A DNA stretch of 64,000 nucleotides from Candidatus Nomurabacteria bacterium (GTDB taxonomy: Bacteria > Patescibacteriota > Minisyncoccia > Phycocordibacterales > UBA9973), in the NCBI GenBank assembly GCA_016699085.1, contig CP064958.1:131785-195784 (forward strand), read 5' to 3'. Below the pieces are notes generated by a model. That model made no database searches. It had not been told where the DNA came from and saw only the letters and a program-made list of their open reading frames with translations. The translations under genes were made by a program, and so were the position numbers. This document shows, piece by piece, positions 2,670 to 7,262 of this stretch (the first letter of the stretch is position 1; each line of letters starts with the position of its first letter).

Positions 2670-2701
2670 TAAAATAACCTTACAGAATAAGGTTATTTTT
2701 G
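2670..2701. terminator. Rho-independent terminator following the 5S rRNA (bidirectional)
   Basis: aataacctta-cagaa-taaggttattttt stem-loop with flanking T/A runs, directly 3' of the 5S gene on the minus strand. Confidence 0.55.
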
Positions 2702-2715
2702 AGTTTGAATACTTT

Positions 2716-2823
2716 GTTCTGGCGACTACCTACTTTTGCCCGAAGACTATCATCGGCTCAACGAGGCTTAACTTCTCTGTTCGGAATGGGAAGAGGTGTG
2801 ACCCTCGCGACAAGTCACCAAAA
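2716..2823 (-). rRNA. rrf: 5S ribosomal RNA
   Basis: Reverse complement reads TTTGGTGACTTGTCGCGAGGGTCACACCTCTTCCCATTCCGAACAGAGAAGTTAAGCCTCGTTGAGCCGATGATAGTCTTCGGGCAAAAGTAGGTAGTCGCCAGAAC. It has 5S hallmarks (CCCATTCCGAACAGAGAAGTTAAGC, GATGGTAGT-like block) and a terminal helix I (GGTGAC/GTCGCC). Confidence 0.85.
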
Positions 2824-2847
2824 CAAAACATTCAAATGTATTTCGCT

Positions 2848-2947
2848 TCCAAAAAGTATATTTAAAAATGCTCTGTGAGGTACAACGGTACCGAACAAAG
2901 AAAATTTCTAGCAAGAAATTTTTGTGCATTTTTAAATATACTTTTTG
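2848..2947. repeat. 22-bp inverted repeat in the 23S-5S spacer (likely processing stem)
   Basis: ccaaaaagtatatttaaaaatgc (2848-2870) is the reverse complement of gcatttttaaatatactttttg (2926-2947), enclosing ~55 nt. Confidence 0.5.
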
Positions 2948-3359
2948 AATATATTATATGTGATTTCCACATTTCCTAATAGGAATCGAATAATTAGTAC
3001 GTCTCGGCTCAACGCATTACTGCGCGTACACCTAACGCCTATCAACGTGATCATCTCTCACGATTCTCAAACGATTCCTCATCTTGAAGATGGCTTCCCT
3101 CTTAGATGCTTTCAGAGGTTATCCATGCCTGACATAGCTACCCTGCGTTGCCTTTGGCAAGACAGCAGGTACACCAGAGGTCAGTTCACTCCGGTCCTCT
3201 CGTACTAGGAGCAACACTTCTCAAGAATCAACGAGTGCAGTAGATAGGAGACCAACCTGTCTCACGACGGTTTGAACCCAGCTCGCGTACCTTTTTAATT
3301 AGCGAACAGCTAAACCCTTGGCAGCTTCTCCACCGCCAGGATAAGGTGAGCCGACATCG

Positions 3360-3665
3360 CTGTCGTTGTATTCTGGGGAGAAATAAATTTTACTTCTCCC
3401 CAGAAGCTTCTATCACTAGAAGGATCGGACTATATCTTCTTCCTCTTTCATATAAATATGAGTAGGAGATTGGCGTGTAGTCTCTGAGGGTTCCACGTGA
3501 GATGGCCGGCTTCGCCTATCTCATGTGGCCTTCCCTGCTGATTGTCTTATCAATGACGATAAGAGTTCCAGCATATAGCCAATTATTTTATTTTCCTCAC
3601 CGCGCTATCTACAACGCGATGAGGAAACGCTAATGACATTACTGTCATGGCACCCCGATATGTTA
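3360..3665 (-). other. Group I intron (ORF-less, ~306 nt) inserted in 23S domain V at the GGCACCU|CGAUGUCGG site (near E. coli position 2500, peptidyl-transferase region)
   Basis: The conserved exon sequence GGCACCT...CGATGTCGGCTC is interrupted by 306 nt. The 5' exon end GGCACCU can pair with the intron-internal GGGUGCC (P1 with a U-G wobble at the splice site). The insert ends in G (omega-G). A P7-like GACTA...TAGTC pairing is present (CAGAGACTACACG / ATATAGTCCGATCC). Confidence 0.6.
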
Positions 3666-4429
3666 AGGTGCCGAACTGCGCCGTCGATATGAACTCTTAG
3701 GCGCAACTAGCCTGTTATCCCCGGAGTAGCTTCTATCCGTTAATCTTCGGCCGCATCTAATGCGGACCATCGGTTCACTATGTTCTACTTTCGTACCTGC
3801 TCGGGATGTACCCCTTACAGTCAAGCTAGCTTGTGCCATTACACTATCGGCACGGTTTCCATACGCGCCTAGCTAACCTTAATAAACTCCTCCGTTACTC
3901 TTTAGGAGGATACCGCCCCAGTAAAACTACCCACCAGATACTGTTTCTTTGCGTTTTTGCCGCAAGGATTAGAATATGCCACATGAAAGAGTGGTATTGC
4001 ACTGTCGACTCCACAGAAACCGAGATCTCTGCTTCAAAGTCTCCCACTTATGCTACGCAGCCACAAAACATACTCAATACCAAGTTGTAGTAAAGCTTCC
4101 GGGGTCTTTTCGTCTATCTGCACTTAACCGGCATCTTCACCGGTATTGTATTTTCACCGAGCTATTCCCCGAGACAGTTCTCCAGTCATTACACCATTCG
4201 TGCGCGTCGGAACTTACCCGACAAGGTACTTCGCTACCTTAGGACCGTTATAGTTACGGCCGACATTCACGAGGGCTTATATCAGTCAGCTCTTCACAGC
4301 CTTGCGGCTATGAAGAACCGCCGATATTTGACCTTCTCGCATTGGTCAGGTGTCACCCCCTATACATCCTCTTACGAGTTCGCAGGGAGCTGTGTTTTTG
4401 ATAAACAGTTGCCAGAGATACTTTCGCTG

Positions 4430-4748: not shown

Positions 4749-5299
4749 CTTATTCCAAAGTTACGGCTGCTTTTTTGCCGAGTTCCTTGGGGAACACTCA
4801 CTCGTTCGTCTTGGTCTTCTCGACCTGATCACCTGTGTCGGTTTGCGGTACGGTTTCTATATCATTAAGCTTAGAAAATTTTCTTGGAAGCGTGCTTTGT
4901 CTCATTGACAGTGGCGAACCACCATCTTTCTACTAACCTTGCATGTGCCATCAAAGGCAATGTGCGGATTTTCCTACACACCACGCTCAGCTCCTAAACA
5001 GAAATCCAATAATCTGCGAGACATACTACCCTTCGTCCTCTCATCGCATAATACAGAAGTGCAGGAATATTAACCTGCTGTCCATCAGGTCCGGCTCTCG
5101 CCATCCCCTTAGGCCCGACTAACCCTTGGCTGATTGTCATAGCCAAGGAAACCTTGATCTTTCGACGGGAGGGACTCTCACCCTCCTTGCGGTTACTTGT
5201 GCCAACATTCTTACTTCGCAACGCTCCACCGTGGGTCACCCCTTCGGCTTCAACGCGGTTACGAATACTCTCCTACCACTCGCGAACTTCATAAAGGAG

Positions 5300-5497
5300 A
5301 CAAGGTGCGTTTGTACACACCTTGCTCTAGAAAAGAAAATTGTATCGGGCACTTGCCTCATGTCGAGTGTCAACATGCGACTCGGCTGGAAGTATTTACC
5401 ACCAATCAAAATACAATCTTCTTTCCAATCTTCCAAAGAACATGGAGTGAATGATCAAATGAATCATTCTTTCTTTAATTTTCAACAAAGAAATTTT
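5300..5497 (-). other. ~190-nt AT-rich expansion segment at the tip of 23S helix 45
   Basis: Conserved ACCGAAACTGAGGATTCGTGAACTTCATAAAGGAGA and TCTCCTTTATGAAGTTCGCGAGTGGTAGGAGAG bracket an extra ~190 nt. The flanks ttcataaaggag / ctcctttatgaa pair as the helix base. Confidence 0.5.
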
Positions 5498-6134
5498 TCT
5501 CCTTTATGAAGTTCACGAATCCTCAGTTTCGGTAGTATGCTTAGCCCCGATTATCTACGGCGCGAGATCTCTTGATGAGTGAGCTGTTACGCTTTCTTTA
5601 AATGATGGCTGCTTCTAAGCCAACATCCTCATTGTCTAAGAAATTTCACATCCTCGACTTGCACTTAGCATACATTTAGGGACCTTAAATTGAGATCTGG
5701 GCTGTTTCCCTTTTGACTAACGGAGCTTCGCCCCCGTAGTCTAACTGCCATATTTTTAACTCTTGGTATTCGGAGTTTGATAGATGTCGCGAGATTGCTC
5801 CCTGTCGAAATCTTCCAGTGCTCTACCCCCAAGAGGAACACATGACGCTAGCCCTAAAGCTATTTCGGAGAGAACCAGCTATTACCAAGTTCGATAAGCT
5901 TTTCACTCCAACCCACAAGTCATCCGAGAGTATTGTACGGCTCACCGGTTCGGACCTCCAGCGTGATTTCTCACACCTTCATCCTGCTCATGGGTAGCTC
6001 ACCTGGCTTCGGGTCTCTAGTAGACTACCAATTACGCGCTATTAACACTTGGTTTCCCTGCAGCTCCACTCGTAAGAGTTTAGCTAAGCAGCATACTAGA
6101 ACTCGTTGGCTCATTCTTCAATAGGCACGCCGTG

Positions 6135-6390
6135 ACGGACTGCACACTATGTACATCAAATTTGTATTCTCTGTAATAAACAGGGTCTGATATCAAAACC
6201 CTGTCTTAATGAATTCAAAAAAAATCTATCCGTATATTTTAGGCACTCTCAGTAAATTGCTTCTACGTTTCAATACAATCGAAACATCCACAATTCGCCG
6301 ATATACCTTAGAACACGCACGTTCTAAATGTACGAACCTTTTAAATTCATTACAGAAAATACAAAACGATCTACACAAAGTTCAGCCCGC
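6135..6390 (-). other. ~230-nt AT-rich expansion in 23S domain I/II (between the CCTGAAACC...GGAGC block and the GACCCGAAGCC block)
   Basis: The distance between these conserved blocks is ~380 nt versus ~150 nt in E. coli. The extra sequence includes the hairpin acagggtctgatatcaaaaccctgt. Confidence 0.4.
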
Positions 6391-7201
6391 TCCGACTCCT
6401 TGTAAGCATATGGTTTCAGGTCTATTTCACTGTCCTTATCGGACTACTTTTCACCTTTCCCTCGCGGTACTAGTTCACTATCGATCTCTACACGTATTTA
6501 GCCTTGGCAGTTAGTTCTGCCGGATTCCTCCAAGCTATTCATGTCTTGAAGTACTCAAGAATGACAATAAAAAAGATATACTAATTTCGCTTACCGGGCT
6601 ATCACCGTCTGTGGCGTTGCTTTCCAACAACTTAAACTATTAGTACATTTTGTAACTTTCCACGTAATAAAACGTCATTGTCACCTTACAACCCCGACTT
6701 TATTTCTTGCGAAATAAAATTGGTTTGGGCTATTTCCATTTCGCTCGCCGCTACTTCGGAAATTTTGTCCTTGCGGACTTTGTTTTCTTTTCCTCCAGGT
6801 ACTGAGATGTTTCACTTCCCTGGGTATACTCTCTATTCATAAAGAACAGAGTCATCGAGGTTTACTCGATGGGGTTCCCCCATTCGGAGATCTTCGGATC
6901 AAAAGTTGCTAGGCACTTCCCCGAAGCTTATCGCAGCCTGCTACGTCCTTCATCGCCATGTAGAGTCAAGGCATCCACCATATGCTCTTACTTTCCTATT
7001 AGGAAATGTAAAAACCACATATATGACACATACACACTGGTTCTCAACATGTATGTGTCGGCGTACTCGCTTACTGTATTGCTCCGACCGCTCGTAGTTG
7101 CAATAAGGTTGTACGTTTTCTGTTTCCAGCGATTGAAAAGACCCCTTCGAACTACCCAGGATGAGTAAGTCCGAAAAAATAATTTTGCTGTAACAGGATT
7201 G

Positions 7202-7229
7202 GATTATTAAAGGTTAACCGTACAGTCAA
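7202..7229 (-). promoter_or_regulatory. Candidate sigma70-type promoter of the 23S-5S operon
   Basis: The minus strand reads TTGACT-16 nt-ATAATC, ~185 nt upstream of the mature 23S 5' end. A hairpin terminator (7240-7262) lies just upstream and insulates it from the epimerase gene. Confidence 0.4.
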
Positions 7230-7239
7230 TTTTTAGACT

Positions 7240-7262
7240 AAAAAAACCGCCTTTTGGCGGGT
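7240..7262 (-). terminator. Rho-independent terminator (minus strand)
   Basis: gacccgcc-aaaa-ggcggttttttt on the minus strand. Confidence 0.45.

Follow-up and report, generated by a model that had tools for sequence, protein, structure and literature searches.

How is a 23S gene transcribed and matured when it stands apart from the 16S gene and is interrupted by more than a kilobase of extra sequence? The question is raised by a locus near the left end of the Candidatus Nomurabacteria DNA presented above (contig CP064958.1), of which the whole stretch of 64,000 nucleotides (nt) was analysed and is hereafter called the window. The locus consists of a 23S and a 5S ribosomal RNA (rRNA) gene followed by a probable terminator:

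2975..7001, minus strand: 23S rRNA gene (Rfam RF02541)
2717..2822, minus strand: 5S rRNA gene (Rfam RF00001)
2671..2696, minus strand: probable operon terminator, an AU-rich hairpin AUAACCUUA-UUCUG-UAAGGUUAU followed by UUUU (read from the sequence)

The genes were annotated by scanning all 64 kb with Rfam at the gathering thresholds (50 bits for the large-subunit family). The 23S gene is complete (2241 bits, model positions 1-2925 of 2925) and has a length of 4027 nt, which is 38.7% more than E. coli rrlH (2904 nt) and in good agreement with the excess of about 40% given by a first-pass annotation of this DNA. The 5S gene is of a short form of 106 nt (73.6 bits). Both genes lie on the minus strand, as that annotation had placed them, and the terminator hairpin it had put after the 5S gene is present at 2696-2671, although it is weak and has too few G-C pairs to be listed in a terminator scan. 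No small-subunit rRNA gene was found in the window with Rfam and no tRNA gene with ARAGORN; the span free of 16S sequence extends at least 57 kb upstream of the 23S-5S pair and 2.7 kb downstream of it. rRNA genes have been defined as unlinked when more than 1500 bp separate 16S and 23S, and Patescibacteria are among the clades in which they are predominantly unlinked (Brewer et al., 10.1101/705046). By this definition the pair in the window is unlinked, as had been proposed. We conclude with good confidence that the locus is the single large-subunit (23S-5S) rRNA operon of an uncultured bacterium of the Paceibacteria, within the Candidate Phyla Radiation (CPR/Patescibacteria), and that it would be transcribed from the minus strand as a unit of its own, separate from the 16S gene. 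This level of confidence applies to the identity and the architecture of the operon; splicing, excision, promoter use and regulation by the leader we infer, each with the strength given below.

To place the host we took RodA (265..1389; Pfam FTSW_RODA_SPOVE) as the query against a set with one genome for each GTDB species, and analysed the best 80 loci (L002-L081; L-numbers denote these relatives' loci). They match at 61-71% identity and all 80 come from metagenome-assembled genomes (MAGs) of Patescibacteria, mostly named as Nomura-, Yonath-, Taylor- or Paceibacteria. The core of the 23S gene is 77-84% identical to that of Nomurabacteria/Paceibacteria loci (best ∼84%), as against 68% to E. coli. 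The CPR placement, which had been tentative, is therefore upheld on the basis of RodA matches and 23S identity rather than of a marker-gene phylogeny. The rRNA traits reported for CPR bacteria, namely a reduced helix 98 (H98), a short 5S with a length peak near 105 nt and long 23S insertions (PMC9297842), are all present in the window, where H98 is affected by a 17-nt deletion at E. coli positions 2782-2798.

The gene order around the operon is shared by the relatives. Of the 80 loci, 66 carry a 23S and/or a 5S gene ahead of rodA, at a median distance of 1.66 kb, and only 3 of the remaining 14 have an upstream flank that is long enough to judge. In 13 relatives the 23S gene is complete, with lengths of 3057-6038 nt, and in none of these was a 16S gene found upstream of it. 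In 11 relatives (L002, L009, L019, L031, L036, L049, L055, L066-L069) a 16S gene is instead found past rodA, 5.4-9.8 kb downstream and in the same orientation as the 23S-5S genes, for instance at 17042-18660 in L019 and at 18952-20484 in L066. These 16S genes each carry their own promoter, a short GC-rich boxB-like hairpin and a boxA, and thus form separate transcription units. The corresponding region of the present genome falls beyond the left edge of the window. A 16S-23S distance above 1500 bp is what Brewer et al. (10.1101/705046) described for most Patescibacteria; new here is the clade-wide order 23S-5S-(1-2 genes)-rodA. Relative to the canonical rRNA order, some relatives have the genes both reversed and split, as 23S-5S...rodA...16S with the 16S gene 5-10 kb further on and on the same strand. 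Among the nearest relatives by RodA and 23S, many are third-party annotation (TPA) assemblies titled “uncultured Candidatus Saccharibacteria.” As these records are intermixed, by similarity, with MAGs of Nomurabacteria and Paceibacteria and have the same 23S-5S-rodA order, this label looks generic rather than accurate.

The start of the transcription unit was examined by comparing the 440-nt region that precedes the 23S gene of the window with its counterparts in the relatives whose 23S gene is complete. Thirteen leaders, from the window and 12 relatives, could be aligned, and a fourteenth, that of L033, was found later with a covariance model. The elements recognised in the window are the following:

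7337..7365, minus strand: probable operon promoter, -35 TTGACT (7365-7360), 17-nt spacer, -10 TATACT (7342-7337) (consensus scan)
7240..7330, minus strand: leader attenuator candidate (folds, shuffles, pair counts, covariance model)
7283..7324, minus strand: leader mini-ORF (short open reading frame) MKMTKLTNQKRGI then stop, with its ATG at 7324-7322
7291..7295, minus strand: antiterminator 5′ arm GCGGG (fold)
7267..7286, minus strand: leader inner hairpin (fold)
7257..7261, minus strand: antiterminator 3′ arm CCCGC, overlapping the terminator 5′ arm
7256..7260, minus strand: terminator 5′ arm CCGCC (fold)
7247..7251, minus strand: terminator 3′ arm GGCGG (fold)
7240..7246, minus strand: U7 run (sequence)
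7222..7230, minus strand: boxA-like element ATTGACTGT, which contains the TTGACT earlier taken as a -35 box (alignment to relatives)
7120..7196, minus strand: conserved leader hairpin, CUGUUACAGC (7196-7187) with GCUGGAAACAG (7130-7120) (read from the alignment)
6995..7022, minus strand: 5′ strand of the 23S processing stem, AUAUGUGGUUUUUACAUUUCCUAAUAGG, complementary to 2983-2956
2956..2983, minus strand: 3′ strand of the 23S processing stem, CCUAUUAGGAAAUGUGGAAAUCACAUAU, complementary to 7022-6995

The same layout recurs among the relatives: a promoter, a stretch of constant length, a GC-rich hairpin and its U4-U7 run, a boxA-like element, a hairpin enclosing GGGTCTTTTCAATCG, and the processing stem. 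Among the 13 relatives whose 23S gene is complete it is plain in 12, and in the remaining one, L033, it was recognised through the covariance model. The promoter at 7365-7337 agrees with the consensus at 10 of 12 positions, and all 13 aligned leaders have a promoter of the form TTGAC(T/A)-16/18-TATAnT that is equally far from the leader hairpin; L033 has one too. The promoter had previously been placed at 7202-7229. That site has a good -35 box, TTGACT (7229-7224), but its -10 sequence TAATCC is unacceptable, it did not appear in the consensus scan, and no conserved or acceptable -10 box follows the corresponding TTGAC in any relative aligned. The upstream promoter is thus the only conserved one, and on this comparison the operon promoter most likely lies at 7365-7337, while the former -35 box at 7229-7224 is most likely part of a boxA. 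We take the element at 7222..7230 to be boxA-like by comparison with the Gram-positive boxA consensus; ATTGACTGT aligns with TTTGACAAT, TTTGAAAAC or TCTTTGAAA past the leader hairpin in the 23S and 16S leaders of relatives, in which TTTGAAAACTGAAT is also seen. Further downstream, the hairpin at 7120..7196 encloses GGGGUCUUUUCAAUCG (7144-7130), a second boxA/boxC-like motif. The motif GGGTCTTTTcAATCG and complementary flanking arms recur in L005, L013, L018, L021 and L039, and the arms show compensatory changes (CCAACTC/GAGTTGG vs. CCGACTC/GAGTCGG).

Upstream of the promoter lies an aldose-epimerase-like gene (7412..8251, minus strand) with a terminator hairpin of its own at 7400-7373. The first-pass annotation had described the upstream neighbour as a protein gene with its own terminators, which is correct for the gene and for this hairpin. 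The second hairpin, at 7260-7247, must be assigned to the 23S leader, as it is conserved and lies downstream of the consensus promoter. The protein genes upstream differ between loci, and the leader element thus travels with the 23S gene.

This leader element spans ∼90 nt between the promoter and boxA and is present in all 14 loci that include the region. In the 13 aligned leaders, the -35 box and the end of the U-run are 120-133 nt apart. The window contains no second copy. Its structure was derived from folds of the individual sequences and from a trimmed alignment, because RNAalifold predicted no structure on the full-leader MAFFT alignment, in which the 5′ halves are misaligned. All 13 aligned leaders contain the terminator, a GC hairpin with U4-U7, and in the trimmed alignment its helix is paired in 93% of cells, with a covariation reached by none of 500 shuffles. 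When the 13 leaders were folded up to the 5′ arm of the terminator, each formed an antiterminator, at -12.8 to -25.6 kcal/mol as compared with -7 to -11.6 kcal/mol for the terminators (-17.0 and -9.3 kcal/mol in the window). Dinucleotide shuffles of the upstream part paired the terminator arm in 7-39% of cases. The antiterminator helix is paired in 76% of cells vs. 33-50% in shifted controls, and its arms change together among lineages (GCGGG/CCCGC, GCGG/CCGC, CGGCC/GGCCG, GGUGAC/GUCGCC, and GGCGGAA/UUCCGCU). Apart from weak generic terminators, the covariance model matched its 13 training sites and one site on which it had not been trained, L033 180-240, which lies upstream of a 23S gene and has the same promoter and layout; the element was thus found only upstream of 23S genes. 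As predicted from these sequences, the leader holds two mutually exclusive folds, a terminator and a more stable antiterminator, that are conserved among the relatives, and it is a candidate attenuator of 23S-5S synthesis. A literature search, itself limited in reach, yielded no description of attenuator leaders upstream of 23S genes.

According to this model, transcription would begin at the consensus promoter 7365-7337, pass through the ∼90-nt leader, which would fold either as an intrinsic terminator or as the more stable antiterminator, and then cross the boxA-like antitermination elements. The 23S and 5S parts would be freed from the precursor at the flanking stem of ∼28 bp, which includes helix H1 and in which 7022-6995 pairs with 2983-2956.

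What could set such a switch is suggested by the mini-ORF. The first ATG lies 9-17 nt past the -10 box in the 13 aligned leaders and opens an ORF of 8-13 codons, the equivalent in L033 having 11. In all 14 leaders its stop falls between -3 and +11 nt from the first base of the antiterminator 5′ arm, and all other ATGs upstream of the arm share its frame. Shuffling reproduced this geometry in 3-35% of cases per sequence, giving a product of roughly 4e-6 over six divergent lineages, which is a rough figure. The encoded peptides are poorly conserved, save for a frequent K/T-R(CGG) at the arm.

None of the 47 long ORFs in the window has a Shine-Dalgarno 4-mer upstream (background 6%). Many genes have a TATAnT-like hexamer, resembling a -10 box, 6-7 nt before their ATG (for example among the starts at 1389, 2174, 21683, 51353-52162, 55757-56821 and 59797-61722), which suggests, at the level of sequence, that the window encodes many leaderless mRNAs. 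The 16S genes of two relatives (L019 18600-18660; L066 20424-20484) end in GGAUUAUUUCAA rather than GGAUCACCUCCUUA, indicating that the anti-Shine-Dalgarno sequence has been lost in the clade. The lack of Shine-Dalgarno sites and the apparently leaderless genes bear on translation initiation in this clade in general. Since no gene in the window has a Shine-Dalgarno site, we do not count its absence against translation of the mini-ORF. The ATG of the mini-ORF is farther from its -10 box (9-17 nt) than are those of the apparent leaderless genes (about 6-7 nt).

Tentatively, and with considerable reservation, we propose from these arrangements that the leader of this unlinked operon acts as a translation-sensing attenuator. 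By default the nascent RNA would form the antiterminator and the rRNA genes would be transcribed. Free ribosomes translating the mini-ORF would end at the GCGG arm and block the antiterminator, upon which the CCGCC/GGCGG-U7 terminator would form and 23S-5S synthesis would drop; the action of TRAP on the Bacillus trp leader follows the same logic of blocking one arm (PMC3064811). In a weaker version, offered as an alternative, the same switch would be set by a protein or a small ligand. As in attenuators of the trp type, whether they use a leader peptide or TRAP (PMC3064811), the terminator and antiterminator of the window leader share one arm and exclude each other, and a short ORF ends at the antiterminator 5′ arm; as in the TRAP-controlled leader, the antiterminator is the default and blocking of its 5′ arm would permit termination. 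Unlike these systems, the leader precedes an rRNA rather than a biosynthetic operon, has no runs of control codons, has a mini-ORF that, like every gene in the window, is without a Shine-Dalgarno sequence, and is a switch predicted from sequence alone. If the proposal is true, the availability of ribosomes would exert direct negative feedback on transcription of the large-subunit rRNA, and would do so in a clade with separated rRNA genes that has lost initiation based on the Shine-Dalgarno sequence. An attenuator built into this operon would also offer a testable explanation of how 16S and 23S output are kept in balance where the rRNA genes are unlinked.

The hairpin with its U-run (7260-7240) could also be no regulatory switch at all. 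They could terminate an independent gene for a small RNA or micro-peptide that is a neighbour of the 23S gene by chance, or represent a boxB-like hairpin of the rRNA antitermination system, with the 23S gene being read from the second promoter at 7229-7202 or by constitutive read-through. Considered jointly, these options are a serious possibility, if one that falls short of an even chance. In the 16S leaders of relatives, too, a short GC hairpin directly precedes boxA, although it mostly lacks a U-run, whereas all hairpins of the 23S leaders are followed by U4-U7. The TTGACT at 7229-7224 is a perfect -35 box, but no relative has an acceptable -10 box after it. The antiterminator is the more stable fold, and read-through could for this reason be constitutive. 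Against these options, the upstream arm remains complementary to the terminator 5′ arm in 13 of 13 leaders in spite of sequence change, and promoter, mini-ORF and arm keep a constant geometry.

The second part of the question concerns the extra length of the 23S gene. Insertions were mapped by BLAST and by MAFFT alignment against E. coli and the 23S genes of the 13 relatives in which it is complete. Four large insertions, I1-I4, were placed at structurally sensible sites and together amount to about 1.05 kb, in agreement with the earlier count of at least four insertions totalling more than 1 kb:

6145..6373, minus strand: I1, 229 nt, tip of helix H25, after E. coli position 544 (alignment)
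5296..5510, minus strand: I2, 215 nt, tip of helix H45, after E. coli position 1173 (alignment)
∼4438..4736, minus strand: I3, ∼299 nt, replacing the tip of helix H63 (alignment)
4495..4689, minus strand: 64-codon ORF in I3, MITIKFIGEKNHTSPKVEIYDENNTLIDTVIVKQGKEIFFQRENALKSKTFLSDPKRKVTVTIE, preceded by AAAGGAGGAAACA (ORF list)
3360..3665, minus strand: I4, a group I intron of 306 nt between U2500 and C2501 in the peptidyl-transferase region (Rfam RF00028)

Smaller expansions in domain I add ∼70 nt and are common to all relatives. The gene without I1-I4 has a length of 2978 nt and a GC content of 47.5%, as compared with 32, 37, 28, and 43.5% for I1, I2, I3, and I4, respectively. Insertions were found in all 13 relatives, at recurring sites that correspond to E. 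coli positions 545, 1170, 1710, 1931, 1952, 2263, 2500, 2593, and 2630-2657. Insertions of at least 100 nt have been reported in 77% of CPR 23S genes, averaging 1232 nt per gene (PMC9297842). The total of ∼1.05-1.12 kb in the window, which belongs to the same lineage, is near this mean, and with its short 5S and missing H98 the locus shows no difference in kind from the insertion-bearing rRNA genes described there and, so far as they are cited in that paper, by Brown et al. (2015). An insertion-laden, unlinked 23S gene is thus ordinary for the lineage, the same traits having been published across the CPR. The locus is unlike others of this class in detail: the sequences of I1-I3 are without relatives among the loci examined, and H63, which is normally reduced in CPR bacteria, bears a 299-nt insert with an ORF.

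I4 differs from the other three in that it can be assigned to a known family. The match to Intron_gpI (3406..3628, minus strand; 80.5 bits, threshold 50) covers the whole model (positions 1-253) and includes the P3-P9 core. The end of the 5′ exon, GGCACCU, pairs with GGGGUGCC of the intron to form P1, with a U.G pair at the splice site, and the intron ends in a G at 3360. Ligation of the exons gives GGCACCU|CGAUGUCGGCUC, the conserved sequence of E. coli 2494-2512 around A2503, and removal of I4 restores exactly the conserved peptidyl-transferase sequence GGCACCUCGAUGUCGGCUC. By these sequence features I4 is a bona fide group I intron. As it interrupts a universally conserved and essential sequence, we infer that it must splice itself out. 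Group I introns are known from the 23S genes of Coxiella, Thermotoga and Simkania. I4 resembles the bacterial 23S introns in its match to RF00028, the U.G pair, the terminal G, its conserved site in domain V and the presence of homologues at the same site, namely in L013 (∼70% identical) and, more distant, in L033. It differs from others in its small size of 306 nt, in carrying no ORF and hence no homing-endonuclease gene, and in its position after U2500, for which nothing relevant was found in the literature.

I1-I3 share a different design. Each sits on a hairpin tip and is closed by a long stem: a 37-bp rod in I1 (6393-6351 with 6175-6132; -102 kcal/mol, z -9.2 vs. shuffled sequences), an uninterrupted 22-bp stem in I2 (5520-5499 with 5299-5278; -104 kcal/mol, z -9.3) and a 29-bp stem in I3 (4748-4716 with 4460-4426), which has a weaker fold excess (z -4.1). 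A permissive Rfam scan of 2500-7500 assigned none of the three to a family even at E <= 1; a c-di-GMP-II match at 3981-4053 (22.6 bits vs. a threshold of 53.5, E 0.23) lies within the conserved 23S core and was taken as chance. Neither the window nor ∼1 Mb of sequence from relatives' loci contains a second copy that would mark I1-I3 as repeated mobile elements. Of the 13 relatives, just L033 and L066 have an insert at H25 and just L033 and L006 one at H45, and insertions at the H63 site are sporadic; most relatives have no insert at these sites, and the inserts of L033, L006, and L066 share no sequence with those of the window.

These features resemble those of the intervening sequences (IVSs) of bacterial 23S genes, in which the terminal loop of a variable helix, classically H9, H25, or H45 (at H25 and H45 a tetraloop), is replaced by an extended stem-loop with complementary termini and which are cut out by RNase III with no re-ligation (Warrier et al. 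2016, PMC4990558). I1 and I2 replace the tips of H25 and H45, which are classical sites of RNase III-excised IVSs such as are known from Salmonella, Yersinia, Campylobacter, and Leptospira, and the long complementary termini and the sporadic distribution are likewise found here. In the IVS in H45 of Coxiella burnetii the termini pair over 28 bp, as compared with 22-37 bp in I1-I3; it carries the S23p ORF, as I3 carries an ORF in its loop (PMC4990558). A difference from the known IVSs is that excision and fragmentation are only predicted for I1-I3. The 23S gene of the window is flanked by the ∼28-bp stem described above. Such a stem is the usual entry point of RNase III, and processing of this type is thus plausible in this organism. 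By analogy with the classical IVSs, RNase III would cut out I1-I3 and the ends would not be rejoined, so that the 23S rRNA would be in fragments yet functional, a fate that we somewhat favour over the other possibilities.

The ORF in I3 could mean that this insert is the remnant of a mobile element and that its 64 codons are, or once were, a real protein gene, by analogy with the S23p ORFs in the IVSs of Leptospira and Coxiella. The ORF lies in an insert of 28% GC at a site of sporadic insertion, its closing stem of 29 bp is similar to the one of 28 bp in the Coxiella element (PMC4990558), and a search of 1.84 billion representative proteins returned one convincing homologue, P0004, which is of the same size (62 amino acids) and 47% identical over its full length (E 1.8e-4). 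This sole homologue is encoded on a contig of only 779 nt in an ENA metagenome assembly (ERZ27296333). A word-indexed search and searches of viral contigs, PHROGs, phages (tblastn), and plasmids (blastn) gave no further one, and a profile of the ORF and P0004 recovered P0004 only. The ORF belongs to no Pfam family at E <= 0.01 and to no PHROG family, and its AlphaFold model has low confidence (pLDDT, the predicted local distance difference test score, of 54). The Coxiella S23p protein is itself apparently not produced in vivo (PMC4990558). On balance a protein gene in I3 is conceivable, yet we would not call it probable.

Three leads concerning this ORF were rejected. Two near-identical 92-amino-acid proteins encoded on two JGI metagenome contigs (L082 609-887 and L083 1578-1856) share only PKVEIYDEN with it and are probably unrelated; their genes adjoin a polyprenyl-synthase-like gene outside rRNA genes. 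Membership in S23p was dismissed in view of the missing Pfam match and of a model that, at low confidence, is all beta strands and not a four-helix bundle. Finally, a GGAGG 6 nt before the ATG would look like a strong ribosome-binding site, but none of the 47 window genes has one and the 16S of relatives is without an anti-Shine-Dalgarno sequence, so that it is probably not functional. The sequence to which it belongs, AAAGGAGGAA (4697-4706), nearly repeats the 3′ strand of the stem that closes H63, AAAGUAGGAAGG (4438-4451), and can pair with the same 5′ strand; it looks like a duplication left by the insertion event rather than a ribosome-binding site. The H63 insert would be a second case, unrelated to S23p, of an ORF inside an rRNA intervening sequence.

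A number of observations weigh against the interpretation of the locus developed so far. The downstream 16S gene is seen in only 7 of the 43 relatives that have at least 9 kb of downstream flank. The antiterminator helix has an invariant core, CGC/GCG, and for this reason its covariation is moderate, the observed values being reached by 14 and 33 of 500 shuffles. H63, which carries I3, is not among the classical IVS sites (site list in PMC4990558). No RNase III gene was found among the window proteins scanned, which has little weight as the window is part of a genome. I1-I3 sit on the hairpin tips of variable helices and form stable rods, as would be expected of bacterial expansion segments that are kept in the mature 23S rRNA as surface rods and enlarge the ribosome. 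The three helices concerned, H25, H45, and H63, are the ones that carry the expansion segments ES7, ES15, and ES27 of eukaryotes. We nevertheless consider retention of this kind unlikely. I1-I3 are far more AT-rich than the core (28-37% vs. 47.5% GC), have no sequence in common with the inserts of relatives at the same sites, which most relatives do not have, and in I3 include an ORF. In other respects the trend in CPR ribosomes is towards a loss of surface rRNA, including H63 (PMC9297842), and CPR rRNA insertions were for the most part predicted, from a comparison of genes and transcripts, to be introns that the transcripts do not contain, according to what PMC9297842 cites from Brown et al. 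(2015).

That the extra length is an assembly artefact, made of chimeric joins or collapsed foreign sequence, is highly improbable even though metagenome assemblies often break at rRNA genes and many relatives' contigs end within the 23S gene, since every insertion boundary is structurally exact (P1, terminal G, and exon restoration in I4; long complementary closing strands at the hairpin tips of I1-I3) and independent assemblies from other studies have insertions at the same four sites, including the homologous U2500 intron. The insertions in the first-pass annotation are thus genuine. As described, the operon is of value as a taxonomic marker and calls for caution in rRNA-based surveys and assembly, and the leader with its mini-ORF, which is present in every Paceibacteria locus that includes the 23S upstream region, and the ORF-bearing insert in H63 are worth pursuing.

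Some further observations concern the 23S genes of the relatives. The operon is one at which short-read assemblies break, as judged from the many contigs that stop within it. The longest gene, in the Taylorbacteria locus L033 (702-6739), extends over 6.04 kb and has about 10 insertions. That of L013 (3293-8868) has a length of 5.58 kb and contains a 1274-nt insert near E. coli position 2263, a size sufficient for coding a protein. Nine of the 13 relatives (L005, L006, L018, L019, L022, L036, L039, L066, and L074) have an insertion of 338-556 nt at E. coli 2593/2594, a known group I intron site. None of these inserts reaches the Intron_gpI gathering score in the relatives given an Rfam scan, and they may be divergent introns or another type of element.

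Elsewhere in the window, a promoter-like sequence TTGACT-17-TATATT with an extended TG lies at 2640-2668, immediately past the 5S terminator. It overlaps the first ATG of an ORF of 125 amino acids (2272-2649) that belongs to no Pfam or PHROG family; the true start of this gene may be the ATG at ∼2619, in which case this gene, too, would be leaderless. Polysaccharide and nonulosonic-acid genes form a long cluster on the minus strand at 13518-40938, which includes genes for a sugar transferase, a NeuB-TIM-barrel fusion, a cytidylyltransferase, a glycerophosphotransferase, a sulfotransferase, and a flippase. Genes with housekeeping roles, among them those for FtsK, RecA, EF-P, S6, and MetRS, are found in other parts of the window.

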